The position numbers and the translations under genes were made by a program. From positions 288,001 to 352,000 of the forward strand of contig CAVRJO010000001.1 in NCBI GenBank assembly GCA_963722255.1: a stretch of DNA of 64,000 nucleotides, given 5' to 3'. The notes under the pieces were generated by a model, which was given only the letters and a program-made list of their open reading frames with translations, did no database searches and was not told where the DNA came from. Positions 2,981 through 42,946 of the stretch are shown piece by piece; position 1 is the first letter of the stretch; each line of letters opens with the position of its first letter. The stretch comes from Candidatus Babeliales bacterium. Lineage in GTDB: Bacteria > Babelota > Babeliae > Babelales > JANWKD01.

Positions 2981-3044
2981 ATGGCAGCTCTTATTTCAAG
3001 AGCTGCCACAACTTTAAAAAGTCATCAATATTCATTTGTTGAGC
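2981..3044 (-). repeat. Diverged second copy of the rsmA 3' end plus terminator hairpin
   Basis: 58/61 nt identical to 3991..4051. Minus-strand frame reads AQQMNIDDFLKLWQLLK*. Confidence 0.9.
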
Positions 3045-3076
3045 ATAAAGTATTAATATTTCAAAGGAGACTTACC

Positions 3077-3976
3077 ATGAAAAAATCTTTTAACTATAGT
3101 ATCAAAAAATGCATTAATTTTAGCACATTTGCTCTTCTCATAGCCAGCTCGGCGAACTTTTTTTATTTAGAATCAAAATGCACCCGCTTCCCATGCCAAA
3201 ATGCCCACCGCTTTGACAACCATGAATTCGTTAAAGGAACTTATCTTTTGGACAGACTCATTTTTACAAAAAATTTCCCTAATAATTTAAAACTACAAGT
3301 AAATGATGGTGGTGATTTTAATTTTCCAATAACAAAAAATAAATTAATCGACAATGTTTTCTATTTTAATAAACAGGGGCATGGTGACTTATATTTACAC
3401 GACAATTCAACAGTTGTGATCAGTGATAATCAAGGCAATAAATTGGTTGTAACACGACGACAAGAAGAACACAGAGGAAATAAGCTCAATTTTCCCGATA
3501 CAATAACCATCTACCTTTTTAACAAAAAGAATTATGAGGCTAACAAAAAAAATTATGGAACAAAAATTGTATTTGATGTTAATAAATTTGAAAACCTTCT
3601 CACGCAAACCACCACTTTTGATAATTTACCTGGAAGGGTAAGAACAGTAGAAAGAGTTGGCGGAAAAGATCCAAGACCTGCGATAGGGAGCATGAAACTC
3701 AAACTATCATTTGACCCAAGCTATAATAATATCGACTTAGAAATAGCATTTGAAAACCGTTTTGATAACAAGATTGAAGTAAAAATAGAAAGCCATGAAA
3801 ACCCCCTTATCGAAGCCACGTCAAGCACCTCTTACAAAAATTATGATATCACAACTTGGGATAAAGATTCTCAAAACAAAATATCTTATTACAATGATTT
3901 ATACAAAAATAACATTATTGTAAAAGAAGCAATGACGCAGGATGATTATAATGCAATAAAATACGTCTTAGAATAG
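3077..3976 (+). CDS. Hypothetical secreted protein (beta-rich); start placed at ATG 3077
   Basis: AAGGAGA RBS before 3077 and an N-terminal hydrophobic stretch. The ORF-track start at 2981 lies within the repeat. Confidence 0.7.
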   Translation: MKKSFNYSIKKCINFSTFALLIASSANFFYLESKCTRFPCQNAHRFDNHEFVKGTYLLDRLIFTKNFPNNLKLQVNDGGDFNFPITKNKLIDNVFYFNKQGHGDLYLHDNSTVVISDNQGNKLVVTRRQEEHRGNKLNFPDTITIYLFNKKNYEANKKNYGTKIVFDVNKFENLLTQTTTFDNLPGRVRTVERVGGKDPRPAIGSMKLKLSFDPSYNNIDLEIAFENRFDNKIEVKIESHENPLIEATSSTSYKNYDITTWDKDSQNKISYYNDLYKNNIIVKEAMTQDDYNAIKYVLE

Positions 3977-3988
3977 AAAATGACAATT

Positions 3989-4021
3989 TTATGGCAGCTC
4001 TTATTTCAAGAGTTGCCATAA
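3989..4021. terminator. Hairpin overlapping the rsmA stop, between convergent genes
   Basis: ttatggcagctctt-atttc-aagagttgccataa inverted repeat. Confidence 0.6.
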
Positions 4022-4780
4022 GTTTAAAAAGTCATCAATATTCATTTGTTGTGCTCTCAATGCAAGGGTTTCATCAGAAAGTTTGGAAAGATCATAATGC
4101 GTTGATACCAAATTATTCCGCAAGGTCCTTCGTGGATGCGCAAAGCATAACTTAATAAATTTCCAAAAAGCTTCCTCATTTGGTATCGGTTTAACATCCT
4201 TTTTAGGCTTAAAATAGACCAATCGAGAAAACACCTTAGGGGGAGGAAAAAATGCCCCAGGTGGAATCTTTTTCAAAAGTTTAAGATCAAAGTAATACCC
4301 ATAAAATAAAGCGGGAAATCCATAGCCCTTCCCACCTTTTTTTGTTAATTTTTGAGCAACTTCTTCTTGGGTCATGACAACGCCTTCTTGAATAATTTCT
4401 CTGTGCTTATAAAGCAACTGAAAGATTGGGAACGTTATCTGATAAGGCAAATTGGCTAATAAAACCCATGGTTTATATGGTTCAAATTGAGAAAAATCAA
4501 CATCCAAAATATTTTCTTCTTTAACGTCTAAGCGTTTATCATTAATTGATTCTCGCAAATATGAAACCCATTGTGTATCAATCTCAAAAACCCACAAACG
4601 AGCAATATTCTGTTCTAAAATAGCGCGTGTAAGAAATCCATCTCCACCGCCAATTTCAAAAACGGACGTTTCAGGAGTTAATTTTACCGTTTGAATAGCC
4701 TCATCAACAACCGACCGATCACGCAAAAAATGCTGGCCAAACTGCTTTTTTAAAGGGATACCTTGCGAATATACTGTCAT
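4001..4780 (-). CDS. rsmA: 16S rRNA m6,2A dimethyltransferase RsmA/KsgA
   Basis: KKQFGQHFL, EIGGGDG, ANLPYQI, FFPPPKVFS and RRTLRNNL motifs. Confidence 0.95.
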   Translation of the reverse strand: MTVYSQGIPLKKQFGQHFLRDRSVVDEAIQTVKLTPETSVFEIGGGDGFLTRAILEQNIARLWVFEIDTQWVSYLRESINDKRLDVKEENILDVDFSQFEPYKPWVLLANLPYQITFPIFQLLYKHREIIQEGVVMTQEEVAQKLTKKGGKGYGFPALFYGYYFDLKLLKKIPPGAFFPPPKVFSRLVYFKPKKDVKPIPNEEAFWKFIKLCFAHPRRTLRNNLVSTHYDLSKLSDETLALRAQQMNIDDFLNLWQLLK

Positions 4781-18266: not shown

Positions 18267-20768
18267 TTATTTACTCGTTGGCAAACCTGGAACAGTATCT
18301 TTGCCAAGGACTGCATTATATGCTTGATCAATAAAAAAGGGTCGTGTTGCTCGAGCCTCACTAAAATCATCCTTCCTCTTTTTCAAAAAAGCTTCTTGTG
18401 CTTTTTTCCCTTCATTTCTTAATTCAGGCAATGGAATATCAGGATTTTTGCTAAGCGCACTTCCTGTAGCCCAACTCCCCCAGGTCCCCCAATCAACACG
18501 ACTTCGTGTTCCTTTCGCACTATAGACTGCATTGAGAGAATACCAGTGGTTAAGACCCGGCAAAACTACAAGATCTTTCATTTTCATTTCATCAGGTGGG
18601 ATAGTATAAACTGGAACCGTTAAATCATTGAGAAATCTCTCTTGTTGCATATCAAGTCGTTCCATTATAGTTGAAAGAGAATTATAATAATCTAACAACA
18701 GCTTTAAAGACTCATCGCCCATAAATTCTTGATTATTATTAGTAATTTTTGCGACAATTTGCGATGAAAGCTTATCAGTCAATGCTATAAACATATCTCT
18801 AAACGAATCAATAAACTCTAATGCTTTATAATATTCACTAGGTTCAGGATCCCATTTTTCCAAGAAATTCTTTTTTGATGAGAACCTATCATTCATCACT
18901 TCTTTGACAGAATCCATTGCATTATTTAGTTCATCCTTACTTTTTATTGCATCAAAATTTTTAACAATTTCTTTAAGTTGATCTCGCTGCTTCATTAACC
19001 ATTTTACATCATTATCCATGTTAGTATAAACCTTAGGAGTATCAATCAAATCAAAGAGATTATTGCCCTTCATATTATATCCATTAATCATTTGATATTT
19101 AACCCTAAGATCATCTGGTAGGCCCGCACCAGTGCGAACGGCCTCTCTATTAGGTGACTTTTCAACTTCAGTTTGGATTGCCTTTGCCCCTCTTGCTGAA
19201 CCTTGTTTTTTAAAGACTTGATCAGCCTTGATAAGGCTTTCTCTAAAATTTGGGATTCTATTTAAATAATCAATTGTTGCAAATGTTTTTTTAAACAAAA
19301 GATTCCTTTTCTTCTTCATTGCAATACTTTTTTGCAATAATGCCACTTTAGTCGCCTCATCTAACTGCGAAAATTGAGGGGAAGTCAAAACATCTTGATA
19401 TGCTTTATCTAATCTTGTAACCAGATCTTTTAATTTTAATACGAATTTAATCTTGGTGAATTGATCAAATCGTATTTCTCCTGCTTCATCTTTGGTAAGT
19501 TGCTCAAGATCAATGCCATCAAGCATCTCAACTGTTTTAATTAAATTTTTATATGCTTCAGTTTTAATTGCTTTAGCATAATCTTTTTGTAATCTACCAG
19601 GTTTACCATTTCTTCCAAGCATATCATCAAAATCTAACGTTGAGCTTGCATCAAGATATTCTCGAATAACCTCTTTCTGTTTTTTATGAACTTCTGCACG
19701 ATCAGCTTCACTTGTTGCAGGCCAAGGCTCTGCTGCGCCTTCAGATTTTTTTCCTGTTGATTCTATAATCAATTTTTTAGCTTCTTCTATTAAACCTTTT
19801 GTTTCTGCATCCAATTTTAAACCTTCGACACCATTGAGTTGATCCACATCTGTTAGTTCATCCAAATCTGTTATAGTCGTTGCCAATAAATCAACCGCTT
19901 CTTTTCTCTGATATTTTAGTTTATCGGTTTCTTTTTCCATTAACACGCCTTAAAGCTCCTGTACTCGTATCTTTTTTAAGTTCATCAAGTTGAGCATCTA
20001 TACTCTTTAAATTTCTTAAATACAAATCAATATTTTGTTTATTATCATTTGTTTTTCCAGCAAAATCATTCAACAGACTAATTTCATACGCATTCTTCGC
20101 TTGTTTTCTTAGATCACCAAGACGTCCATAAATTGTACCAAGTTTTTCACGTAAATTTATCAATTTATTAGGATCATTTAAGATCGATTCACCAACATTA
20201 ACCGAAACTTCTAAAACAAATTTTTGTAAACGATCATACCAACGTTTAGGTAATGAAATCTTTGTATTTACCGCTTCCAAAACTTTCTTTGTATTTTTTT
20301 CTTGCACCTCAATAGGTACAACAGGAGCAACAGGCGTTTCAACAGGATTAAGTGTTCCGGCAATTTTTTGATTCAAAGCATCAACTATCTGCTTGGTTAA
20401 TTTTTCTTGTGCATTTATCTGTTTTTCAAGCTCTGCTTTTTGGTTTTCAAAATCAGCCGGTTTTTGTGGTTCTCGTATAAGATTTTCTAATCTAACATCC
20501 AAATTGTATGCTTCAACCACAGATCGATCAGCATTTATCTTCATTTCTTCTTCATCTGCGGCTTCTTTAGTTATTTCATTTTTTTTTATTTTTCTTCCAG
20601 CTCATTCTTACGCTTATCTATATCTTTTTGCACTTTTTCGGCTTTTTCTTTTCGTAATGCCTCAGAAGTACCTTCAATCGTTGCAAGGGTCCACTTACCC
20701 ATTTCGCCTGAATAAATCTGTGGCATAAAAAGCAATAATAGAAATATATATCGCATCATATTTTGCAT
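18267..20768 (-). CDS. Large secreted coiled-coil protein (about 830 aa), split into three ORFs by two frameshifts
   Basis: ORFs 20586..20768, 19921..20544 and 18267..19946 appear to join, one junction being at a long A-run (T-run on + strand, about 20580-20595). Signal peptide MRYIFLLLLFMPQIYS. Confidence 0.6.
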
Positions 20769-20886
20769 TACATCACCCTTTTTTTAATAGTAGTTATTCA
20801 TACCCTAGTTTTTTAGGGTTAAGCCTACTAATAACCATCGATCATTTGCAATAAAAATAAAGATACATGAATAGTGGGATAAATAA

Positions 20887-21965
<1,079 letters not shown>

Positions 21966-22080
21966 ATTATTATCATTATTTTGCAAAAAAGAAATTTTCA
22001 TCCATATCTTTGATTTCTTGCATTAATTTTTGGTAACGTAATAAAAATTACTAGTGACAATTCAAGAAAGAGAGTGATGC

Positions 22081-22647
22081 ATGATGGCTATTTCAATAAA
22101 ACAATCATCTTTACAAATAATGGTAAGTATACTTTTATGTATGCTTTTTATGATCTCGTGCATAACATTCTGGTATCAATCAACCATAGTAACTGATCAA
22201 CATATTGTTAATGATATTGCCATTCTTGGATCAATTTTTAAGAAGATTAACGAAGCATGCGAAATTGTTGATTTTAAGTTTCAGCAAAACAATGCTATCG
22301 ACTATTTGCAAGTCATTGCCTTTGAAGGATCTGAACTTGGAAGCATGGCGCTTAAACATCCAAAAAAATGGAAAGGGCCTTATCTGCGTGATAACCTTAC
22401 TGCCCAAGGAAAGTTTTATCAAATTGTTAAAACAAATGATGGCTATTTTATTGTACCTGGCGATGGCGTTATTTTGCACAATGGCAAAACAGTTGGCAAA
22501 GATATTAAATTTGATCTAAATGCAAACATCCCTGCACTGATAAAAGACCCAGAAATGCTTCAGTTTCAAGGTAAGCCATTGGCTGCAAAACTGGAAATCG
22601 GCTTGCAAAAGCCTACCATACCGGTTGACGAAGTTATAGAAGAATAG
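22081..22647 (+). CDS. GspG/pseudopilin-like protein
   Basis: Single N-terminal TM helix, 'IVNDIAILGSIFKK' helix and HPKKWKGPYL (GspG WxGPYL motif). The classical GFTLIE prepilin site is not seen. Confidence 0.55.
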   Translation: MMAISIKQSSLQIMVSILLCMLFMISCITFWYQSTIVTDQHIVNDIAILGSIFKKINEACEIVDFKFQQNNAIDYLQVIAFEGSELGSMALKHPKKWKGPYLRDNLTAQGKFYQIVKTNDGYFIVPGDGVILHNGKTVGKDIKFDLNANIPALIKDPEMLQFQGKPLAAKLEIGLQKPTIPVDEVIEE

Positions 22648-22716
22648 TTTATGATTTTTCAAAATATGCAAATAAAAAATAATAAAATTTTATATCTCTT
22701 GATTTAAAGGAATAGT

Positions 22717-24636
22717 ATGAAGATTATTACAATATTCTACTTATTTATTGCATGTATAAACAATATGACTATTTATAGCTCAGAAGCCATTAAGGCAATT
22801 GATTGGAGCAAAGAAAGACCCGAAGTTCCTAAGGGCACTGATTCACAAAAAGAACGCCAAGAAAAAGCTTTAATAGCAAAACGAGATGAACTTAAAAGAA
22901 ATATCGAAGAAGAAAAGACAGGAAGCCTGCCAGATGATCCAAAAATAAAACTTCAGCAAGATATTCTCGATTATTATGAGGCAACATTGGAACAGTTTAA
23001 TGCTGAAAAACGATTGGAAGAAAATCCACAAGATAAAGAAGCGCAAGAATCAAAAGCAATTAAAGAAAAAGAACGAAATGATTTAAATACTAAAATTACT
23101 CAACAAATTGCATCAACATTTAGCCCAGCATCCAATAATGGCCAAGGAGAAAAACAGCCTGCAGGAGCACAAAGAATTATTGAAAAAATAAAATCGGCGA
23201 TTAAGAATCTCATTTCAAAAATAGTTGATATAAAGTTTTCCAATAAAGCTACGATTGAAAAAGTAGCTACCTCACTTAAAAAATCCATAGCTGATCCAAA
23301 AATTGCGAATCTACCTGCTGACTTTCAAACAAAACCTATGATGGAAAAAATAGAACTCTCATTACAGGCATATGACAATCCCGAAAATAGTAACATTCAA
23401 AGTTTCTATAAACAACAAATAGAAGAATATGTTAACGCATTACAAAATTCTGATATTGAATTTTCAGTACAAAATAAAGATCCCTATGCCATAGCAAAAC
23501 ATCATAGTGAGATTATTAAAAAATTATATGATATCGGCATTAATCAAGACCAGTTAGATAAATTGACACTTGTTAAAGACAATGCCATTAACACAATAAA
23601 AGAAACTTTTAAAACCCCTAATGCGCAAGAAAATGTAAAAAAGTTCTTTACCGAAACTAAAGCTGATAGTTTTAATCGCAGTTCTTTTGAATCAAAATTT
23701 GATCAACTAGTTCCAAGAAAATTTCTTGGTGAGGAATTAAACACCTTTAAAAAAAATTTCGATGAACTAAAAACCGAGTTATCTCAATTAGAGAATTATG
23801 CTCACTACAGCTTAGATATAGTTAACACAGAATATAGATCTCCATTACTCGAATTTTTACAAAAAAAATACTCTGAGTTAGCAACCATAATGCAGCGAGT
23901 CTTAAACTATAATCGGAAAACAGAGGGTATTGACCAACTAGTAACGGATGCAATGATACAAGATTTACAAGCAAAAGCTAAACAAGCGGAAACATGGCTT
24001 ATTGAAAATGCTGCATCAGCAGAAAAAAGAAAACCCTCAACAGAAGCTATTAAAAAAATCGAAAACGAAAATATAAATGCAAAACCTCTAGACTCGCAAG
24101 CACTAATAATTGCCAACACAAAAGCTCCTCATTACATCGATGAGTTTAAAGCACAACTTTCAAAAACTAATGATCCTCTTGAAATAACATTGCAAGAAAA
24201 ATTTACAAAAATCTCTGAAATTCTTGCTGATTTTATTACTTTTTCAAAAGATGCAGATCCTTCAAAAGCGGGTGTTGACACCGCACAATTGATTCTTGAA
24301 AACATACAAAATCTAAAGAACTGGATCGATCTTTACGCAACCACCTTTAACTTATCTGAAGAACAACTCAAGAAACTTGCATCATATTATTCTTCTTTAA
24401 ACGAACTTTTTGCAAAGATATCTCAACAAAGAAATAATGATATACAAAATATTTTTAGGCGTTTAGATGATGGATCTCTTATATTAGTTGATAAAAGCCG
24501 CCGCAAAGTAAGCGGAGAAGTTTATGTTCCCATTATATTTAGCATTGAAAAAATCCAATCACTCGATGAGATCATCACACAATTTAAAGCTGAACGTAAG
24601 GCAATGACTACAATCAAAGAATCCGGTGGCCTATAA
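22717..24636 (+). CDS. Secreted helical protein, paralog A
   Basis: AAGGA RBS and signal peptide. Shares blocks with 24881..26830 (AYDNPEN/AYNRPEN, DIEF/DIEY, ADPSK, RLDDG/RLQDG, FKAER/FKAGR). Confidence 0.8.
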   Translation: MKIITIFYLFIACINNMTIYSSEAIKAIDWSKERPEVPKGTDSQKERQEKALIAKRDELKRNIEEEKTGSLPDDPKIKLQQDILDYYEATLEQFNAEKRLEENPQDKEAQESKAIKEKERNDLNTKITQQIASTFSPASNNGQGEKQPAGAQRIIEKIKSAIKNLISKIVDIKFSNKATIEKVATSLKKSIADPKIANLPADFQTKPMMEKIELSLQAYDNPENSNIQSFYKQQIEEYVNALQNSDIEFSVQNKDPYAIAKHHSEIIKKLYDIGINQDQLDKLTLVKDNAINTIKETFKTPNAQENVKKFFTETKADSFNRSSFESKFDQLVPRKFLGEELNTFKKNFDELKTELSQLENYAHYSLDIVNTEYRSPLLEFLQKKYSELATIMQRVLNYNRKTEGIDQLVTDAMIQDLQAKAKQAETWLIENAASAEKRKPSTEAIKKIENENINAKPLDSQALIIANTKAPHYIDEFKAQLSKTNDPLEITLQEKFTKISEILADFITFSKDADPSKAGVDTAQLILENIQNLKNWIDLYATTFNLSEEQLKKLASYYSSLNELFAKISQQRNNDIQNIFRRLDDGSLILVDKSRRKVSGEVYVPIIFSIEKIQSLDEIITQFKAERKAMTTIKESGGL

Positions 24637-24668
24637 AAGCTTATTCTGGTCAATTTTATAAGAGATTG

Positions 24669-24737
24669 TTGGCTGCAAAACTGGAAATCTGCTTGCAAAA
24701 ACCTACCATATCGGTTGATGAAGTTATGGAAGATTAA
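24669..24737 (+). repeat. Diverged second copy of the GspG-like gene 3' end
   Basis: 62/69 nt identical to 22579..22647; reads LAAKLEICLQKPTISVDEVMED*. Confidence 0.9.
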
Positions 24738-24880
24738 AAGTCCTGAATTGTCTCGTATCCCTACCCTTCCCTATTAATAAATTATTTCAATTTGAATATT
24801 TTATTGAAAAATCACTTTGTTTTTTGCTATCCTTATACTAAATAGAAATTACTATGAAAAAAGAGTATAAAGGGGCGGCT

Positions 24881-26830
24881 ATGAACTTTTTAAAAAAAAT
24901 ATCAGTTTTTATTGTTTTTTTGAGCTTTATAAATATTTGTTTGGCTGGTGAAGCACCACGCGGAATAATAGAAAGGCCCCAAGAACCTACTACTCCTTCG
25001 GCAAGAGATACTCTTGAACTTGAAGGTAAGCGTAATCTTGAAATTGATAAACAAGAAAAAGAAAAACAATTAACAAATGAAAAAGATCCAGCAAAACAGC
25101 AGAACTTTCAGATGAACTCAGGATAATTGATAATCAACAAAAATATATCAAAAGTTTAATAGAAACTTTCGATGCCAAAGAGCGGCTAAAAATAAATTCT
25201 AATGACCCCGCAGCCAAAAAAACAATCAGAGATAATAAAGAAGCAAGAAAATTCTTGGATGAACAACTTCAAATCCTATCAGAAGCAATTCAAAAAGGAT
25301 ACATACCTGCTGATGGAGAAACAACAAATCAACCTTCATTGGTATCTAAACTAGTTGAAGCAATATTTTCTCCAATACAAAATTTCATAAAAAAATTTAA
25401 TGTAAAACGAGAATTGCAACCAGAACAAGCAAAAAAAACACTAGATAAAACTATAAAACAATCAACTACCATAGGGGGAGGCCCAATTGAAAGTCCAGAG
25501 AAAATACAATTTAGCTTAAAACAAAAATCGGTTGCAGATCAACTTGATTTATGGATAACTGCATATAATAGACCGGAGAACGTCGGTGTACAAAAATTGT
25601 ATAAAGATTTTATAACAGATTACATAACTAAACTTGAAAATGCCGATATTGAGTATACTTTACAAAATAAAAAGGATCCAGAAGCAATACAAAGGCATCA
25701 TGAAGAAATTGTTAATGCCTTACGTGCAATAGGAATTGATCAGGCTCAAATAGATGCATTGAATAAATACAAAGATGACGCGGTTAATAAAATCAAAACA
25801 ACCTTTAGCACACAAGATAAAATTAATAGAGTTAATAAGTTTTTTGATGCAACTTCAGCGGATAATTTTAGCTTAGAGCAATATAACAAATTAGCAGATG
25901 CTACCAATAAACTCGATACTAACTCTCCAGAACAGTTGAAAACTATGATTGCAAATGTCGAAACATTAAATGCTATAGTAGATGAGTTGAATGATTATGC
26001 AACATATTCCTTAGATTCGTTACCACAAGACATAAGAACCAAGATGCTAGAGTTTGTGACAAACGAGCAAAATTTTTTAATAAATTGTTATGAAGATATC
26101 ATTCAAGCTAAACTATTAGGAACTTTAGTTACAGAAGAAAAGGTGAAAGACCTGCTTAGAAAACTTAAACGTAACCAAGCATATTTAAGAAAAAACGGAA
26201 CAATTATTGCAAGACGTTGGTGAAAAAAATTTAATTGCAAACCAAAAACGCCTTGAAGTACAAGAATTAATAAAAAAAAATATGGATGCAAAACCATTGA
26301 ACGATCCATTTTTAAAATTAGCAAATGAAACAATTCCTTCTGGAATTAGCGAATTTAGCAAACTCTTACGAGAAAATCCACTTGCAACTGATACCAAAGA
26401 TAAATTTGCAGTTATTACAAGAGCGATAGATAGTTTCGTAAAAAATGCTGGCGAAGCCGATCCTTCAAAAAAGGCAGTAGAAGCTTCAGAAGCTATTCTT
26501 ACTGAAATAGATAATTTACAGGATTATATACAGCTTTATAATGATGAAACTGAATTGACACCAGAGCAACAAAAACAACTTGTGCAATACTATAAAACTC
26601 TCGATGATCTGTATACAAAAATTGCTGGACAGGCAGTTAATGATATGAATAATCTTTTAAAACGTTTGCAAGATGGAACAGTTATTTACTTGGAAAAAAG
26701 CAAGAGAAATACTCCTAAAGATCAATTTTTAATTCAACAAGGTTTAACAAAACAGGAGACTGCTGATTTTATAGAATCTAAATTTAAAGCAGGTCGCATT
26801 AATATGATTACATCCCAGGAAATTTCTTAA
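24881..26830 (+). CDS. Secreted helical protein, paralog B (two frameshifts near 25100 and 26210)
   Basis: The joined ORFs align collinearly with 22717..24636. Signal peptide MNFLKKISVFIVFLSFINICLA. Confidence 0.7.
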
Positions 26831-26865
26831 TAAATTATCCATTTAAACAAAAAAAAGGATCAATA

Positions 26866-29703
26866 ATGCAGTTAAAATTATTATATTATGCATTCATTGC
26901 GTGTTCGCTCGCAATAAACATCGATCTGCATGCAATGAAGCGTAAACATGAAGAAGAGAAAGAAAAGGAAAAAGGATCTGAAGAACAAATTCTTGGAAAA
27001 GAGAAAAAACGAAAGTTAGAGCAAGAGCAACAACTTGTGCAAGGAATATTGCAAGAAAAAAGCTTAGAAGAACGTGCTCAAAATTACCTTACTACCCTTA
27101 TGCAAATAAAAGATGAACAAGCTCTTAACATAATGCTTGAACAGCATTTCTATGAACCATTAGAACTAAAAGATTATCTTACAAACCTAATAAACACACC
27201 AAATATAGTGGGTGAAACCCCTTTGCATGATGCCAAAAATAAATACCAAGTGCATGCTCTTTTTGCAATGGGTGCAAATCCAAATATTCGATCACATATT
27301 CTTCACTTCCCATTTGATACAATGCTCTTTAAAGGAAATATTGAAGCAGCAGAAGCAGTTCTTGAAATTTTGAAGGTAGAACCTCTTTTAGCTTTGAATT
27401 TGACAATTTTTACTACACTTCATTATGCAATTATGAATAATGCACCATCACTTGTACGAAGAATCCTTGCTAATCCCCAAAATCAAGATAATGTTGCAGA
27501 TGTTCTAGAAGAAAGAAACATTGAACCTGAGGCAATAGCTCTTATTGCAGCCGCTCTTTATTGCCCAGATTGCATTAAAGATCTTATTGCACATGGTGGT
27601 AATATAAACCTAATGGACTTAAATGGAATACCATTAATAGTTCACGCAGCTAGAACACAACCTCCTGCAATCATAGAAATGCTCATACAAAATGGAGCTG
27701 ATCCAGCTGCCGTTGATACGGATGACCTAAATATCCTTGCTTACGCAGTAGATAGCAATAACTATGATCTTATCACCTATTTAGTAGATACTAAAAAATT
27801 TAACGTTAATGTAGATCCTCAATCACCGGATTATGAAGGTGAATTCCATGAATTTCTAGCTCCCTTAGGCATAGCAGTAGAAAATTACCTTGTTGAAGAA
27901 AATCCATCACAGCTTACTAAGATAGAAGAGATTATACATTTTTTAGTTCAACGAGGTGCAAGAGTTAACACTACCCGATCTCTCTATCAAACACCACTTT
28001 TTATTAAATTAGTAAAAAAAGCTACTGAAAACACAAGAAGTTTTAATTTAGTTCGTTATTTTGTAGAACATGCTCATGCAGATGTCAATATCATTTCATT
28101 TGAAGAAAGTGAAATCAATCTTAGCAATCCTAAAGAAGAGTACCCATTAGCTGCAGCAATTTTTACTGATTATGATCACACTAAAGAAATCAATCAAATT
28201 AATGAAAATCTTAATTATGAACTTATAAACTATCTTATAGCCCATGGAGCAAAAATCAGACAACGTGATTTGGATATCATAGGTCAATTTGGCAATCAAA
28301 CGTTACGAGAAGCTCTAGCTAAAGCAGCTATTTTTGATGAACAAGAGTTTAATAAAAACATTGCAGGGCAAGAAAAAAAACTTGAAACTCCAATGGAGAT
28401 TGAAGAGACCCCGGAAGAATTAAAATCACCCAAAGAGGAATTTGAAGAAGTTTCACGCATCTATCAACCGCTTAGTTTAAAGTATCAAATAACTAAACAA
28501 TTTATTACAAATTTTTTACAAGCAGATCAAGAAGAAACTATCGCAATGCAAGAAGCTTATCAGAAATTGATTCCTGAGATGAAAGAGTATATACGCTTAT
28601 TAGTAAATGAAAAAAACAGTATGAATCTCACCTTATTGCATAATGCAACAACTGCTCAGGACGTTGAAAAACTCTTACTTCTTGGAGCTGATCCTGCTAT
28701 TGTGTCAAAAACCGGTCAAAATGCATTCTCAAGCATGCTGATACATGGTAATAATGCAGCAGCTGAAAAATTATTAGAACTTAACCCTGATGAATCTCTT
28801 ATCTTTTTTGATAAAGGCGGTTTATCGACTCTTCATTATGCTCTCATTGCTCATGCTGTATCTATAGCAAGAAGGATTTTGGATAATCCTGCAAACAAGG
28901 AAATAATTAAAACAACAATAAATGAATTAGTTGGGAGAGATCCCGGCGTAACTCCATTGATATTAGCAACACTTTATTGCCCTGAACTCATTGAACTGCT
29001 TATTCAAAACGGTGCTGAACCCAATTTGCATAATATAGATGGAGTATCTCCTCTTTTATTTGCTGCAAATAAACAACCCGTAGAATTTATTAAACTCTTA
29101 ATCAAATATGGAGCAAATTTAGAAGCTACTAATCATATTGGCGATGATGCCCTTTATTATGCAGTAGCTGGAAAGAATATTCCTCTTATTAGCTATTTAG
29201 TGCAAGAGCTAAAATTTGATCCCAATATACCTAATGATGATGAAGAGCCTACAACTGCATTTGAATATGCTATTCAAAATATTACAGATCCTGAATATCA
29301 TAAAACTATTGAAGAGTTATTAAAATATGGCGGTGATACGAATACAAAAAAAACTAACTTAACCATTATTATTCCAAAAGCATATGCGTATACCACTCTT
29401 ATAAAAGAGTTCATTCATCATGGTGCAGATGTAAATTACACTGATGGAATACGCTATCCGCTAGCTGAGGCGCTATTTCTCTATGATGAAAATGTCAATG
29501 ATTATGTCGAATTACGAAATCAATTTAATTATGATCTTATTGCTTACCTTATTGAAAAAGGAGCACTTATTGAACAAAAACATAAAGACATCATTATGAA
29601 GAGCCAAAATAAAGAGCTTATTAATCTCATTAAGCCCGCTAAAATTTATTATGAACACCTCAAAGAGGCAAAAAGAATTGAACACCAAGAAAAAAATGAC
29701 TAA
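26866..29703 (+). CDS. Secreted ankyrin-repeat protein with internal duplication
   Basis: GETPLHDA, TTLHYAI, LIQNGADP and GVSPLLFAA repeats in two homologous halves. Confidence 0.9.
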   Translation: MQLKLLYYAFIACSLAINIDLHAMKRKHEEEKEKEKGSEEQILGKEKKRKLEQEQQLVQGILQEKSLEERAQNYLTTLMQIKDEQALNIMLEQHFYEPLELKDYLTNLINTPNIVGETPLHDAKNKYQVHALFAMGANPNIRSHILHFPFDTMLFKGNIEAAEAVLEILKVEPLLALNLTIFTTLHYAIMNNAPSLVRRILANPQNQDNVADVLEERNIEPEAIALIAAALYCPDCIKDLIAHGGNINLMDLNGIPLIVHAARTQPPAIIEMLIQNGADPAAVDTDDLNILAYAVDSNNYDLITYLVDTKKFNVNVDPQSPDYEGEFHEFLAPLGIAVENYLVEENPSQLTKIEEIIHFLVQRGARVNTTRSLYQTPLFIKLVKKATENTRSFNLVRYFVEHAHADVNIISFEESEINLSNPKEEYPLAAAIFTDYDHTKEINQINENLNYELINYLIAHGAKIRQRDLDIIGQFGNQTLREALAKAAIFDEQEFNKNIAGQEKKLETPMEIEETPEELKSPKEEFEEVSRIYQPLSLKYQITKQFITNFLQADQEETIAMQEAYQKLIPEMKEYIRLLVNEKNSMNLTLLHNATTAQDVEKLLLLGADPAIVSKTGQNAFSSMLIHGNNAAAEKLLELNPDESLIFFDKGGLSTLHYALIAHAVSIARRILDNPANKEIIKTTINELVGRDPGVTPLILATLYCPELIELLIQNGAEPNLHNIDGVSPLLFAANKQPVEFIKLLIKYGANLEATNHIGDDALYYAVAGKNIPLISYLVQELKFDPNIPNDDEEPTTAFEYAIQNITDPEYHKTIEELLKYGGDTNTKKTNLTIIIPKAYAYTTLIKEFIHHGADVNYTDGIRYPLAEALFLYDENVNDYVELRNQFNYDLIAYLIEKGALIEQKHKDIIMKSQNKELINLIKPAKIYYEHLKEAKRIEHQEKND

Positions 29704-29706
29704 TCG

Positions 29707-30627
29707 TTAGTGAAGCATAAACTGTAAATAGAAATGTTCAAAATGTGCAGGAAGACCATTCTTTATATTCCAATCAATTGAATAAAGATGATCATGTGCT
29801 TGTTTAAGTTTATCGACTGTTACCAGCTTCCAATCTTTTTGCATAAAAGAAAAAGGGAGTCTATACGCAACCCGTTTTGCCTTGGTAAAGTTTTTATCAT
29901 GCATCAATAAACAAAATAACGTGGCTTTAAAAAGCTGCTCAGACCAAAACGTAGTCCAAAATGGATCTGAATAATCATCACAAATCATAGTCCATAGCTG
30001 AAAAAATTGCTGTTCTTTTTTTGCAAACAATAAGCTACTCAAGGTAAATAAAGATTTTTCAGGATTAAGTAATGTCGGCAACCACTCATGCAAAAATGCA
30101 TCAGACTTATTACCAACAAGAATACAATAGTGCATCAGCACAAATACTGAATCTATATTCAGAACAGTACTGATTCTAAAAAGCTGCTTTACAATCTGGG
30201 TACATTTTGCCGATTGCGCAGGATAAAGAAAAGAAAAAAGTCGCGTAAATTCCTCATACGTTACTTCCTCAGGCACTTCAATTATGATTTCCTGAGTCCC
30301 TTCTTGAGCAGGAACTATTTTACTTACGTATCCAATAATATTTGGACCAGAATATGCATGTAATAATGAAGAAACTGTACTATTTTCAGATAAGAGATTC
30401 TCACTGAGCCAGAAGACCGAAATTTCCCCTAAAAAGCCCATCATTAACTGTGCTTTTAATGCAGCCTGAGAATCTAATGAATCGATAATCGAAATTTGAT
30501 TAGAAACAGATTCAAATTTTTTTTTAAAAATCTTAGTAATAAGTGATGAATTTTGTTTTGTAATAAAACAAAAAGTAGACCCTAACTTTGCCGGAGAATC
30601 ATGAGAAATAAAAGTTACTAAATCCAT
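29707..30627 (-). CDS. holA: DNA polymerase III delta subunit-like
   Basis: Size, an MGFLG motif and C-terminal 'LYSIDWNIKNG' resembling HolA DxxxKxG; divergent. Confidence 0.55.
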   Translation of the reverse strand: MDLVTFISHDSPAKLGSTFCFITKQNSSLITKIFKKKFESVSNQISIIDSLDSQAALKAQLMMGFLGEISVFWLSENLLSENSTVSSLLHAYSGPNIIGYVSKIVPAQEGTQEIIIEVPEEVTYEEFTRLFSFLYPAQSAKCTQIVKQLFRISTVLNIDSVFVLMHYCILVGNKSDAFLHEWLPTLLNPEKSLFTLSSLLFAKKEQQFFQLWTMICDDYSDPFWTTFWSEQLFKATLFCLLMHDKNFTKAKRVAYRLPFSFMQKDWKLVTVDKLKQAHDHLYSIDWNIKNGLPAHFEHFYLQFMLH

Positions 30628-30662
30628 GGATAATTCACATTCTAAGGAAGCGGTTTTTTATA

Positions 30663-30689
30663 ACTGGGTCACCACGTTTTCGAAGCAAC
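30663..30689. repeat. Remnant of the 7361..7452 palindromic element
   Basis: actgggtcaccacgt is identical to 7415-7429 and cgaagcaac is identical to 7378-7386. Confidence 0.5.
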
Positions 30690-30721
30690 TCCGTTGAATC
30701 ACTCTATCCGTATATCATTGT

Positions 30722-31489
30722 TCAAGGATTGAAGCGAATCGCATTAAAAGGAGTCACTGGTTTTTCTTGTTTAGGTTCAGAAAATGTTGCATATACTTCG
30801 GAAAAAATCGAATTCGTTCCTTTAAGAGCTAATTCATGCATTGTAGCTACAGTAGACCATGCAATAGGACTCTTTTCTGCTGATCCCTGAATTTCTACAA
30901 TCTTTCCTGAACGGGTAATTACAAAATTAAAATCAGCCTCAAGAGTACTATCTTCATTGAAGTCCAAATCAACCATAACAATATCATGAAAAGCTCCAAC
31001 AGAAATACCTGCAATTTCTTCGCGCAGAATCAATGAACCAATTTTTCCAGCACGTAACCATCGATCAACTGCAAGTTTTAAAGCAAGAGATGCTGCTGTA
31101 ATACATGCAGTTCGAGTGCTTCCATCAGCTTGCAAAACATCACAATCAACAACAATAGTTCGTTCGCCCAAAAGATCTAGATCAACAACTGATCGCAAAA
31201 CCCTGCCAATTAATCGTGAAATTTCCATAGATCTTCCATTAGGACGGCTCAGGCTCTCACGCTCTTTACGAACATGAGTAGCCGTTGGCAACATTGCATA
31301 TTCTGCTGTTAACCATCCCGATTTTTTACCTTTTAAAAAAGGAGGTACGGAGTTTTGCAAAGAGATCGCACACAAAACCTTCGTTTTCCCTTGTTCAAAA
31401 AGTACAGATGCAGAAGCATATTCAATAACATCATAAAGAATTGATATAGGACGCACTTGATCAAAGGCTCGCCCATTCGTTCGTTTCAT
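30722..31489 (-). CDS. rph: Ribonuclease PH
   Basis: GWLTAEYAMLP, EISRLIGR and DCDVLQADGSTRTA. Confidence 0.95.
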   Translation of the reverse strand: MKRTNGRAFDQVRPISILYDVIEYASASVLFEQGKTKVLCAISLQNSVPPFLKGKKSGWLTAEYAMLPTATHVRKERESLSRPNGRSMEISRLIGRVLRSVVDLDLLGERTIVVDCDVLQADGSTRTACITAASLALKLAVDRWLRAGKIGSLILREEIAGISVGAFHDIVMVDLDFNEDSTLEADFNFVITRSGKIVEIQGSAEKSPIAWSTVATMHELALKGTNSIFSEVYATFSEPKQEKPVTPFNAIRFNP

Positions 31490-31508
31490 ATATCAGTTCC
31501 AATACAGA

Positions 31509-33599
31509 TTATTGATTATCGACGATTTTAAGACGAACTCTACCTGAATCTGGATCATAATCAAGAACTTCAACTTTAAGCGGATCGTCTATCTTATATT
31601 CCTTGTTCAAGTTCGCTTGTTTCTGTTTTGGAATCATCGAAATATGGACAAGCCCATCAAAATCAGGAACTAGTTCTACAAAAAGACCAAAGTCAGCAAT
31701 ACGCTTAATTTTTCCATTAAAGACTTGACCCTTATCAATTTGACCAGCTAAGACTTTTACCCAACCTATAGCTTCATCCATTTTAGGACCAGGATGGCCA
31801 AAGATTTTAACAAGTCCATCACTTTCAATATCGATCATAGTGCCCGTTTTTTCAGTAATGCTTCGTATAGTTTTTCCGCCTGTACCAATGATTGCACCAA
31901 TCTTATCTTGCTTTATTTTAAGCGTAACAATATGTGGTACTAACTCAGAAAGTTGCTCATTCGGTTTGGTCATAACTTTTTGCATTTCCATCAAAATATG
32001 ATGACGGCCTCGTTTTGCTTGATGCAATGCTTTTTGAAATACTTCTCTAGGTAAACCACCTTTATATTTAATATCCATCTGGATAGCGGTAATACCTTCA
32101 GAAGTACCTGCAACTTTAAAATCCATAAGACCAAATGCATCTTCAATGCCAGTAATATCACTTATAGGTTGGAAATCACCTTCAGAACTTTGTAATAAGC
32201 CCATAGCAATACCACTACCATTTTTTTAATCGGTACTCCACCATTCATTAATGCCATAGTAGATCCACATACTGTTGCCATAGACGTTGAACCATCAGAT
32301 TCAAGCATATCGGCAACAATGCGAATGGTATAAGGAAAATCTTCTTTATTTGGCAATATTGGTTCAAGCGCTGAAGCAGCCAAATGCCCATGTCCAATTT
32401 CACGTCTTCCAGGTCCACGCATTGGTCGAACTTCACCAACAGAAAATGGAGGGAAATTATAATGTAACATAAATGATTTTTCAACGGTATCACCCATCAA
32501 ATCTTCTACTTTTTGCTCATCTTGACCACCACCAAGCGTTACTGAAACAATGCTTGAGTTCTACCACGAGTAAAAACGGCAGAACCATGAGTAAATGGCA
32601 ATAAACCAACTTCAGTAGAAATCATTCGTACTTGTTCAAATGATCTACCATCAACACGTTGACCAAGTTTAAAAATAAGTTCAGTAATTTTTTTCTTGAG
32701 AACGTCATCAAAAATATACTCAAAAATCTTAGAGGGGATAGCGAGTTCTTCAATCTGCGCTTTATGTTCCTCTTTAAACTCCTCAAGAAGATCGTCAAGC
32801 GCTTTACCACGTTTAACCTTATCAGAAACAAATGTAAGCTTTACACGTTCTTCAGTTAAAAATGAATTAAACTTTTCAGTCCATTCTGTCCAATTAATTG
32901 GATCAACAATCGGTTCTTTAGGTATGCCAACCTGAGCCTGTATCTCTTCTTGCCAAGCAATTTGTTCTTTAATCTGTGCATGTGCTTTAAAAAATACCTC
33001 AACCAAATCATCTTCTGAAATTTCACTGGTGCATCCTTCTACCATATTAATACCTTCTTTTGTTCCTGCAACAGTGATGCGAACATCGGATTCAAGCGTT
33101 TGAGAATAAAGAGGGTTTAAAATCCATTCCCCATCAACACGAGCAACTTCAACTGCACTTACAGGGCCTAAAAAAGGTATCTTGGAAATAGCTAACGCCA
33201 ATGAAGAGGCACCTAATGCAATAACTGCCGGTTGATGCTCTTTATCAACTGAATAGACCGTAACAATATTTGAACTTGATTGAAATAGTTTTCAGGAAAC
33301 AATGGTCGAATAGCACGATCAATAAAACGTCCGGTTAAAACTTCTTTATCGGTAGCTTTACCTTCACGCTTATAATAACCACCGGGAATTTTTCCTGCGG
33401 CAGCAAACTGTTCGCGATAATCGATTGTCAAAGGTAAAAAACCAGGAAAATCTGTTGATGGAGCTGAAACGACAGTTGCTAAAACAACGGTACCTCCTTG
33501 TTTAAACCAGACAGCACCATCGGCTTGTGTCGCAAATTTACCTATTTCAACTTCATAACCAAATTTTTTTAAACTGAATGATTTTACCGTTTTTACCAT
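31509..33599 (-). CDS. pnp: Polyribonucleotide nucleotidyltransferase (about 3 frameshifts, probable sequencing errors)
   Basis: [35 protein letters not shown] (IIGTGGK) and S1 domains spread across 4 ORFs. Confidence 0.93.
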
Positions 33600-33630
33600 T
33601 ACAAACCTATACTAATCAAATTTATATATA

Positions 33631-33892
33631 TTATTTTCGTATCCCTAAACGATCAATTAAACTCTTATATTTATCTATATCTTTTTTTCTAGATATTGTA
33701 AATATTTTTTCTTCGGCTTACCATTTTAAAAAGACCTCTTTTTGAACCAAAATCTTTTTTATTATTATTAAAATGGACAGTTAAGTCTTGAATGCGATTT
33801 GTTAAAAACGCAACTTGGACTTCAATAGAACCTGTATCATTTTCACTTTGAGCAAACTCACTCATTAACTTTTTTTTCATCTCTTTATTCAT
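33631..33892 (-). CDS. rpsO: 30S ribosomal protein S15 (frameshift near 33700)
   Basis: DTGSIEVQVAFLT, KRGLFKMV; ends LGIRK* in the shifted frame. Confidence 0.92.
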
Positions 33893-33924
33893 TTATATCC
33901 TTAACACGATTATTAATCAACTAA

Positions 33925-33999
33925 TGGTAGGCGCGAGCGGAATTGAACCGCTGACCCTTGCTACGTCAAAGCAATGCTCTACCACTGAGCTACGCGCCT
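33925..33999 (-). tRNA. tRNA-Val(GAC)
   Basis: Cloverleaf, anticodon loop TT-GAC-GT, encoded CCA. Confidence 0.93.
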
Positions 34000-34015
34000 T
34001 CCTAACCATTTCTAT

Positions 34016-38142
<4,127 letters not shown>

Positions 38143-38146
38143 CTGA

Positions 38147-42478
<4,332 letters not shown>

Positions 42479-42562
42479 TAAACTGTTCCTCCTTATACCA
42501 AAATATTGCTTTTCACACCCATCGATCAACTCGACTAAATTACTCTTTCCTTAGATTATCAA

Positions 42563-42946
42563 TTAGCTTAATTCAACTTTTGCACCAGCAGCTTCAAGCG
42601 CTTCTTTCATTTTTTTCGCATCATCTTTTGAAGCTGATTCAGCAATAACAGTTGGAGCTTCTTCAACAGCTTTTTTAGCTTCTGTAAGACCCAATGTTGT
42701 CACAGTTCTTAGTGCTTTAATGGTTTTAATTTTTTCTGGTCCACCATCTTTAAGTGTTACTTTATATTCTGATTTTTCTTCAGCCTTTGGAGCTTCAGCA
42801 GCAGCTCCTGCCGCCGGCGCTGCTGAAACAGGCATAGACGCAGAAACACCAAACTTATCTTCTAGACCTTTAACTAATTCAGCCAATTCAAGAACTGTAA
42901 GGCTACCAATTTGATCAATTATTTGTTCATATGACTTTGTTGCCAT
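42563..42946 (-). CDS. rplL: 50S ribosomal protein L7/L12
   Basis: LTVLELAELVK, LGLTEAKKAVE and LEAAGAKVEL. Confidence 0.97.
   Translation of the reverse strand: MATKSYEQIIDQIGSLTVLELAELVKGLEDKFGVSASMPVSAAPAAGAAAEAPKAEEKSEYKVTLKDGGPEKIKTIKALRTVTTLGLTEAKKAVEEAPTVIAESASKDDAKKMKEALEAAGAKVELS

Follow-up and report, generated by a model that had tools for sequence, protein, structure and literature searches.

Integrative elements typically enter genes at their 3' ends and supply a replacement end. Short cargo flanked by repeats at a gene end, together with arrays of promoter-proximal newcomers, is known from cis-mobilizable elements (CIMEs), which are integrative elements reduced to remnants lacking an integrase, and from integron cassettes, and Campbell-type insertion-duplication by a single crossover serves as a laboratory method. 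A related arrangement is present in a 64,000-nt stretch of DNA from a Candidatus Babeliales bacterium (contig CAVRJO010000001.1, positions 288,001–352,000; hereafter the window), where the 3' end of a conserved gene, referred to here as gene X, occurs a second time behind an orphan gene, A. The genome (G000) comprises 1.618 Mb in 2 contigs (C1 and C2), the window being C1:288001-352000, and was compared with a genus-mate (G001), a family-mate (G003) and a member of the same genus as G003 (G004). Judging by the sequences, the 69-nt repeat pair at gene X is, with a probability of roughly 55%, the scar of a homology-anchored additive capture of DNA from a diverged relative.

The cryptic prophage e14, inserted at icd in Escherichia coli K-12, resembles the present locus in that the incoming DNA brings a replacement 3' end, the old end is orphaned behind the insert and the left edge is sharp. 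However, e14 is 15.2 kb long and carries its own integrase and excisionase (intE, xisE), whereas the cargo here is a single orphan gene without any recombinase, and insertions lie at the ends of 14 unrelated genes. CIMEs and integron cassettes rely on a specific att or attC site together with the recombinase that recognises it; in contrast, neither a shared site nor such an enzyme was found at the 14 loci described below. For the displacement of effector–immunity genes of the type VI secretion system in Vibrio cholerae, the excerpted text of the original work invokes homology-facilitated illegitimate recombination and likens the process to displacement of the C-terminal parts of rhs genes (PMC5361080). 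According to the same excerpt, that system shares with the present one a conserved upstream anchor, an illegitimate far end, an old 3' end shifted back together with its partner, arrays, and the absence of a known integrase (PMC5361080). The polymorphic toxin genes in question swap their own variable ends, whereas here the anchors are unchanged and unrelated housekeeping genes, the cargo consists of whole, presumably foreign genes and the scars are spread over the genome. Recombination of DNA taken up by transformation can also add instead of replacing, so that a homologous stretch is duplicated, as described for merodiploids in an excerpt of that work (PMC3784515). The pneumococcal merodiploids of this excerpt span 100–900 kb between pre-existing repeats (PMC3784515), whereas the stretches duplicated here are short (45–211 nt) and have heterologous cargo between them. 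Finally, Touzain et al. (2010), in the excerpted part of their paper, argue that homology-assisted illegitimate recombination is a source of small variable segments (PMC2884548). No description of a genome-wide pattern of this type was found in the literature searched, including that on ankyrin genes and horizontal gene transfer in Dependentiae.

The locus of gene X comprises the following features (positions are those of the window):

22081–22647, + strand: gene X, encoding a conserved protein of 188 aa that is anchored in the membrane and combines a long N-terminal helix with a small beta domain.
22579–22647, + strand: direct-repeat copy 1, the working last 23 codons of gene X (stop included).
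22717–24636, + strand: cargo gene A, 639 aa, an orphan family with a hydrophobic N-terminus resembling an export signal.
24637–24668, no strand: a 32-nt tail that separates the stop of A from the remnant and is read as ending, on the right, in the illegitimate junction.
24669–24737, + strand: direct-repeat copy 2, left over from the 3' end of gene X as an orphan, with the stop retained as TAA.
24881–26830, + strand: A', an old paralog of A, collinear with it over the full length and lying in three open reading frames (ORFs) via two frame changes at A-runs.
26866–29703, + strand: a 945-aa ankyrin-repeat protein (Pfam Ank_2, 3.8e-37), the last gene of the variable interval.

The repeat had been described in an initial annotation made from the window alone, and the description proved accurate. 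The copies are identical at 62 of 69 nt without a gap, the seven mismatches are distributed 2/0/5 over codon positions 1/2/3 (the stop, TAG to TAA, accounts for one at the third position), and both copies are terminated by the stop codon in register. The edges of the repeat are sharp: the flanking 200 nt to the left and to the right of both copies show chance identity only. The pair scores E = 1e-17 in the genome self-BLAST and appears in the repeat search of the window as 68 nt at 91%; among the matches listed, pairs of 60 nt or more at 90% identity or more are limited to this one and to that of rsmA. Copy 2 starts 32 nt past the stop of the ORF at 22717–24636, in a different frame and outside any long ORF. 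The 32-nt tail in front of it has no other match within positions 20000–34000 of the window, which includes the absence of homology to the right flank.

Gene A gives only a sub-threshold match in Pfam, and a search of 200 further genomes of the order returned no match to it at E ≤ 1e-5; A' is its sole relative within the genome. The two proteins are indeed only distantly similar, as had been noticed at the outset (31–35% amino-acid identity, collinear, with negligible similarity of the DNA, 67% over 126 nt at best). The neighbouring gene was thus rightly taken for a paralog of A, although in the assembly it is not one gene but the three ORFs listed above. Its frame breaks may be sequencing errors, because the assembly has many such changes in essential genes, and in an assembly so prone to frame errors A' cannot be called a pseudogene. 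The synonymous codon differs at 88 of the 181 residues conserved between A and A' (45–51%), and third positions differ at 54–57%. The corresponding count in the gene X repeat is 2 of 18, and 36 of 255 (14%) when ten repeats of G000 are pooled. Right after the stop, the spacers behind the two copies show zero similarity. By these counts the remnant is far younger than the split between A and A'. Because A and A' are far older than the repeat, a single in-place tandem duplication of the gene X end together with A fails here, as the initial annotation had suggested; the collinear and equally diverged units that such a duplication would leave are not seen.

Tandem duplication may nevertheless be rescued if the cargo diverged or was turned over rapidly and the remnant was kept similar to gene X by gene conversion. 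The layout of the locus, which looks like two tandem units, and the fact that A and A' are each other's only relatives are in favour of this explanation. It has to accommodate, however, the excess of synonymous-codon differences in A/A' over the repeat and the lack of any similarity right after the stop, and conversion would need to maintain tracts of 45–211 nt (taking all loci together) while A and A' became saturated. We regard it as unlikely, also in view of the codon positions and of the cargo at other loci given below.

The interval between gene X and a 306-aa gene (29707–30627) is a variable spot, for which the available relatives are too distant to date the events. In G000 it holds A, A' and the ankyrin gene; in G001 it is empty, the ortholog of gene X directly adjoining the ortholog of 29707–30627; in G003 it holds three ORFs.

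Recurrence of the pattern was examined by genome self-BLAST and by comparing the last, first and middle 90 nt of 1576 crude ORF calls with the genome. An orphan copy of a gene 3' end was counted as a scar if it lies on the same strand as the gene and reaches the stop codon. G001 and G003, with genomes rebuilt from pieces, were subjected to the same scan. In G000, orphan copies of 3' ends are situated downstream of 14 anchor genes and upstream of 1; the respective numbers are 10 and 2 for G003, and 11 and 2 for G001, where only about 5 are clean. The pattern initially proposed as recurring on the strength of two cases, at rsmA and gene X, thus has far more than these two cases genome-wide. According to Pfam, the anchors of G000 are rsmA, gene X, an M3 peptidase, ruvC, sbcC, rplQ (L17) and cysS, as well as the end of an Omp85/BamA-like gene, a true type IV pilin, one HAD-like, one TPR and one MBL-fold gene and two genes without family; sbcC and rplQ share one locus.

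The 14 repeat pairs of G000 are 29–206 nt long and 85–98% identical, with no identical pair among them, and their copies are spaced by 1.0–5.8 kb from start to start. At 9 of the 14 anchors the end of the repeat and the stop are no more than 10 nt apart (−4 to +10), and at three others (pilin, TPR and rplQ) the repeat overruns the stop by 13–53 nt; at sbcC the edge lies 0 to +3 nt from the stop, and at cysS 0 to a few nt before it, at an indel. The cargo consists of one to five ORFs in 1–6 kb, mostly orphans with a hydrophobic N-terminus, and includes two multi-copy insertion sequence (IS) elements and two DUF4143 ATPase genes. The latter (AAA_14 + DUF4143; L022:2476-3720 and L028:1930-3077) have at least nine paralogs in the genome, and the family seems to be mobile.

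At 6 of the 14 anchors (5 distinct loci) the best or only relative of the cargo is the gene right behind the remnant. At the other 8, none of the genes immediately following the remnant is related to the cargo, a result that speaks against in-place duplication as a general explanation. At the bamA-like locus, the gene next to the remnant in G000 has an ortholog in G001 that stands directly behind the BamA-like gene. As G001 has no gene between them, the 223-aa cargo of this locus is the newcomer, and it adjoins the anchor. Only the bamA-like locus shows this order clearly; the relatives hold other content at gene X. The stacking of cassettes into arrays, which had also been suggested, was confirmed for a few loci (two remnant copies behind the TPR gene and the double junction at sbcC/rplQ) and is not general. 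The tandem arrays with remnants behind the TPR gene are, for their part, what in-place duplication would be expected to give. The TPR locus (G000:C2:509550-516527; L027) contains a tandem of three CdiI_N-like (immunity-type) genes, of which two have a copy of the TPR end in front of them, along with a 1151-aa helicase-methyltransferase that includes four DUF4379 zinc-finger stretches and an antidote-like gene; it looks like a small conflict-system island.

The case at rsmA, on which the initial proposal was partly based, is real as well: 3991–4054 recurs at 2981–3044 over 64 nt with 94% identity, and the mismatches fall 0/0/4 by codon position. Its features in the window are:

4001–4780, − strand: rsmA, the anchor (Pfam RrnaAD, 1.3e-44).
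3991–4054, − strand: the in-gene repeat copy, covering the last 17 codons, the stop and 10 nt beyond, with a hairpin across the stop (z −3.2).
2981–3044, − strand: the orphaned second copy of the rsmA 3' end, which lies 1010 nt further downstream than the copy in the gene and has a 13-bp hairpin (z −3.9).
2981–3976, + strand (opposite to rsmA): the cargo ORF, 331 aa, an orphan matching no Pfam family.

Translation of this cargo probably starts at the Met near 3077, the beginning of a signal-like N-terminus, and no homolog of it was found in G001 or G003. In the remnant the hairpin has 13 bp followed by a U-run; in the working copy it contains a single A-C mismatch. The convergent genes may share it as a terminator.

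The strong hairpin across the stop in both rsmA copies, as well as the stop kept at the aligned place in 23 of 25 remnants, could be taken to mean that selection retains the remnants because they serve the following gene as promoter, terminator, leader or small peptide. This explanation is very improbable in the light of the gene X remnant, where a conserved RNA fold is not supported (z +0.7, against −2.0 for copy 1), the substitutions disrupt the small hairpin of copy 1, and the promoter and terminator scan found no such site, the regional counts being at the level of shuffled sequence. In addition, open stretches reach just 0–47 codons past the repeats and are not fused to the cargo genes, and the repeats of different loci share nothing.

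The distribution of differences over codon positions distinguishes between copies that diverged within working genes and copies that decayed in place. An in-place duplicate whose extra copy decays freely can show 50% of the differences at third positions at most. One remnant per anchor was counted (14 anchors in G000 and 10 in G003) and the counts were tested against 0.5. The mismatches in G000 are 14/9/46, i.e. 46 of 69 (66.7%) at third positions (p = 0.004); those in G003 are 14/8/43, i.e. 43 of 65 (p = 0.006); for both genomes pooled the third-position excess has p = 9e-5. The third-position share exceeds 50% at 12 of the 17 loci with at least three mismatches. As a positive control, icd was compared with icdC of E. 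coli K-12 within the 50-kb e14 region: over 165 nt (92.7% identity) the mismatches are 1/0/11, i.e. 11 of 12 at third positions. The signature observed here is the same as in this control. Since the differences lie mainly at third positions, the copies diverged as working alleles in separate genomes, and both the signature and the icd/icdC control fit the early idea that the cassettes arrive with a replacement 3' end.

The cleanest example found is a secA-like gene of G003 (895 aa; G003:C1:116924-122100; L038, L039), of which a 211-nt orphan copy of the end lies 2.5 kb downstream. The repeat is 89% identical and its differences are 1/1/21. Polarised with G004, they amount to 1/1/6 on the remnant lineage and 0/0/11 on the in-gene lineage, with four sites unassigned. 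Because its changes are mostly synonymous and no faster than those of the working copy, the remnant itself evolved under coding constraint and spent most of its divergence as a working gene end. For in-place duplication, the 66–67% of third-position differences and the 1/1/6 of this remnant lineage are thus difficult to explain by free decay. In G000, polarisation with distant outgroups assigned 16 of 62 differences (0/3/7 to the remnants and 1/0/5 to the anchors). Comparison of the C-terminal peptides with G001 and G003 was uninformative as to which copy is ancestral.

Capture by homology would proceed as follows. The incoming DNA, from a diverged relative, would carry the end of gene X and then gene A. 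It would pair with the resident gene X via general (RecA-type) homology, and an illegitimate joint would link its non-homologous far end to the interior of the resident gene X at 69 nt from the stop. The old end of the gene would thereby be shifted downstream along with all that follows (A' and the ankyrin gene), and gene X would stay intact. The repeat would end at the stop because the homology between donor and recipient ends there. Capture of this kind would account for the arbitrary left edge (the illegitimate joint), the allele-like copies and the lack of any identical pair, and it needs no recombinase or site; it would also account for the frequent finding that no gene is closer to the displaced one than the cargo. 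The donor, the entry route (transformation, or a circle in Campbell fashion), the identity of the incoming copy and the order of the steps are what we infer within this scheme. The same product would be obtained from a Campbell-type circle, from a homology-facilitated illegitimate event, or from a tandem duplication followed by allelic replacement of one unit. As to the features of homology-facilitated illegitimate recombination, 14 genes were found at which a conserved anchor precedes the new module and the displaced old 3' end follows it; distal joints have little or no homology (a 1-nt overlap at sbcC/rplQ and the unique tail at gene X); and allele-like divergence of the copies is seen in the pooled counts and at the secA-like locus. 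Of the initial inference, the recurrent cassettes, each with a displaced gene end, have thus been substantiated; the entry route is a hypothesis.

That route had been proposed to be transformation, with reference to comF and radA in the window. The gene content permits it: genes for ComEC-like, DprA and RecA proteins, for RadA (over its cut-off) and for a ComF-like protein (below its cut-off) are present. The families searched genome-wide, ComEC, DprA and RecA, match in 10–14 of 14 control genomes as well, and so the uptake genes do no more than permit the idea.

The anatomy and the codon signature of the loci equal those of icd/icdC, and direct repeats that duplicate the 3' end of the target and flank an insert are also what decayed site-specific integrative elements (of the type of e14 at icd, or CIMEs) would leave, as attL/attR pairs with a lost integrase. 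However, none of the 27 cargo ORFs has an integrase or resolvase domain. A six-frame search of G000 gave 2 matches to PF00589 (C2:19411 and C2:130669), none in a cassette, and for PF00239 2 matches over the cut-off and one fragment (C1:64810, C1:449622 and C2:569514), again none in a cassette. G001 and G003 have two tyrosine recombinase (PF00589) genes each, none at a cassette. Furthermore, the heads, tails and edges of the 14 loci have no common motif, site or hairpin, apart from within-locus overlaps; 14 different anchors without a common core and a cargo of 1–6 kb, mostly a single orphan gene, also speak against such elements. Decay of integrative elements is therefore quite improbable as the origin of the scars. 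The phage-type integrases seen are limited to two large serine recombinase genes (C1:64810-65268 and C1:449622-450074) with open frames of about 500 and 492 aa, both of them away from the cassettes.

Both ends of an insertion are visible on C2, where sbcC (+) and rplQ (−) converge with a middle junction between them (G000:C2:222221-227661; L021:2721-8161). The junction begins with a duplicate of the final 26 nt of rplQ plus 57 nt of spacer (94% identical), and directly after it follows a copy of the last 188 nt of sbcC with the stop (98% identical). The two parts overlap by 1 nt, a single A. Two unrelated cargos, of 2.35 and 2.55 kb, flank the junction. Such a joint between the interiors of two genes is expected if a circularised molecule consisting of the sbcC end, cargo and rplQ end was integrated by homology; it is also expected of the junction of a tandem duplication whose units then held different alleles. 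Replacement by a double crossover would not give a joint between the interiors of the flanking genes. One of the two cargos holds an IS copy 100% identical to at least five others in the genome.

Joints of this kind also bear on the possibility that the scars are assembly artefacts, in which alleles of two co-occurring strains were laid consecutively. Strain alleles would likewise yield repeats that are not identical and that differ at synonymous sites; frame changes are numerous in the assembly and gather in its most conserved genes, as would result from a mixture of related reads; and proteins of G000 that are 100% identical to those of a small G001 contig, C4, hint at shared samples. On the other hand, at the junctions unique sequence directly abuts a gene interior, with 0–1 nt of overlap, which is no product of an overlap-based assembler, and the tail at gene X lacks the right-flank homology expected of the arm of an assembly bubble. 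The repeat copies differ by substitutions and not by indels, scars recur in two other assemblies, including that of G001 with its intact rpoB and rpoC, and G000 is assembled in just 2 contigs with 2.55% contamination. An artefact thus has little likelihood. The shared proteins are encoded by three ORFs of G000 (C1:466908-468136 and C2:521630-522667) and are 100% identical at the protein level to the 19-kb contig C4; unlike these, core proteins of G001 are only 50–90% identical to those of G000. The identity could be due to a shared mobile element, a shared sample or carry-over in binning.

Several observations weigh against capture by homology. Essential genes (window 31500–42600 and 20914–21965) are cut by frame changes, which limits the quality of the assembly: compared with the proteins of G001, at least 10 changes are present in rpoC and at least 4 in rpoB, and pnp is split into four ORFs and trpS into two. 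The changes are clustered: 89 neighbouring ORF pairs match the same G001 protein, and they gather at C1 300–350 kb and C2 200–250 kb, at the most conserved operons; rpoB and rpoC have three frame changes in G003 and none in G001. Most likely they are indel errors of long reads, perhaps in a mixed sample, worst where related organisms share sequence. The gene X locus alone gives a weak codon signal, seven mismatches at 2/0/5. The excess in G003 depends on the secA-like locus, without which the counts are 13/7/22 (p = 0.44), and 46 of the 62 differences in G000 are not assignable to a lineage with distant outgroups. The MBL-fold locus (7/4/6) and two loci of G003 resemble free decay; the MBL-fold remnant looks like an old and freely decayed one. 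At the pilin locus the cargo pair has 10% synonymous-codon differences and the similarity continues past the stop; at the M3-peptidase locus the cargo pair has 27%, against 4 of 13 in the repeat. At these two loci a plain tandem duplication is enough, because the cargo pairs are no older than the repeats, and their being about as diverged as the repeats is a point for in-place duplication. The density of scars was determined in G000, G001 and G003. No close strain was found: a metagenome scan with gene X gave 7 loci with 50–53% identity at best, and the closest genome compared, G001 of the same genus, has a gene X identity of 51%. Finally, no paper showing that homology-facilitated illegitimate recombination yields such a duplication was found in the literature searched.

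Single scars are known and ordinary. What distinguishes the present ones is their density (at least 14 in 1.6 Mb, and ~10 in the family-mate), the housekeeping anchors, the absence of a recombinase and the allele-like copies. The scars provide a readable and datable record of the gain of orphan secreted proteins from relatives by a bacterium of obligate intracellular type with few mobile elements. If general recombination and an illegitimate joint are responsible, the scars would be a genome-wide marker by which gene gains can be counted and dated. They also yield a prediction that transformation of model species could test. It is conceivable, although doubtful, that they reflect an integrase-free cassette economy, in which genes of relatives are added at the ends of core genes by RecA and an illegitimate joint and later looped out between the imperfect repeats, and which would be the main route by which parasites of the Babeliales type enlarge and share their secreted repertoire. 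The ends of core genes would then be generic attachment sites, and any gene behind a conserved gene end could be taken from co-infecting relatives.

Gene X had been labelled GspG-like. The protein is present in 26 of 30 relatives searched, with a best identity of 51%, and has no sequence match in Pfam, NCBIfam or the PDB; a 13-member alignment gave no Pfam match better than E = 0.014, none of them relevant, and a profile search of the PDB returned only de novo TIM barrels. The prepilin N-terminal cleavage/methylation motif was not detected in it (no match to PF07963 or TIGR02532), whereas the true type IV pilin of G000 (L025:5660-6181) matches both. An AlphaFold2 model built from the 13-sequence alignment (predicted local distance difference test score 77.6) contains a helix at residues 6–60, followed by strands and a small beta domain. 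Foldseek found nothing for this model at E ≤ 0.001. In VIA-align the best 9 rows are pilins and pseudopilins with weak Z-scores of 4.4–3.4, PilA1, PulG and EpsG being at the top with Z 4.4–4.1 only. The label thus finds no support in sequence, and what stands of it is, in the predicted model, a weak fold resemblance and not family membership.

Besides the 3'-end copies, a 74-nt repeat (93% identity; G000:C2:565024-565097 and 566009-566082) flanks a 285-aa gene situated just upstream of the start of another gene. This pair may be a 5'-side counterpart of the scars; the N-terminal region of its 285-aa cargo is F-box-like by eye.

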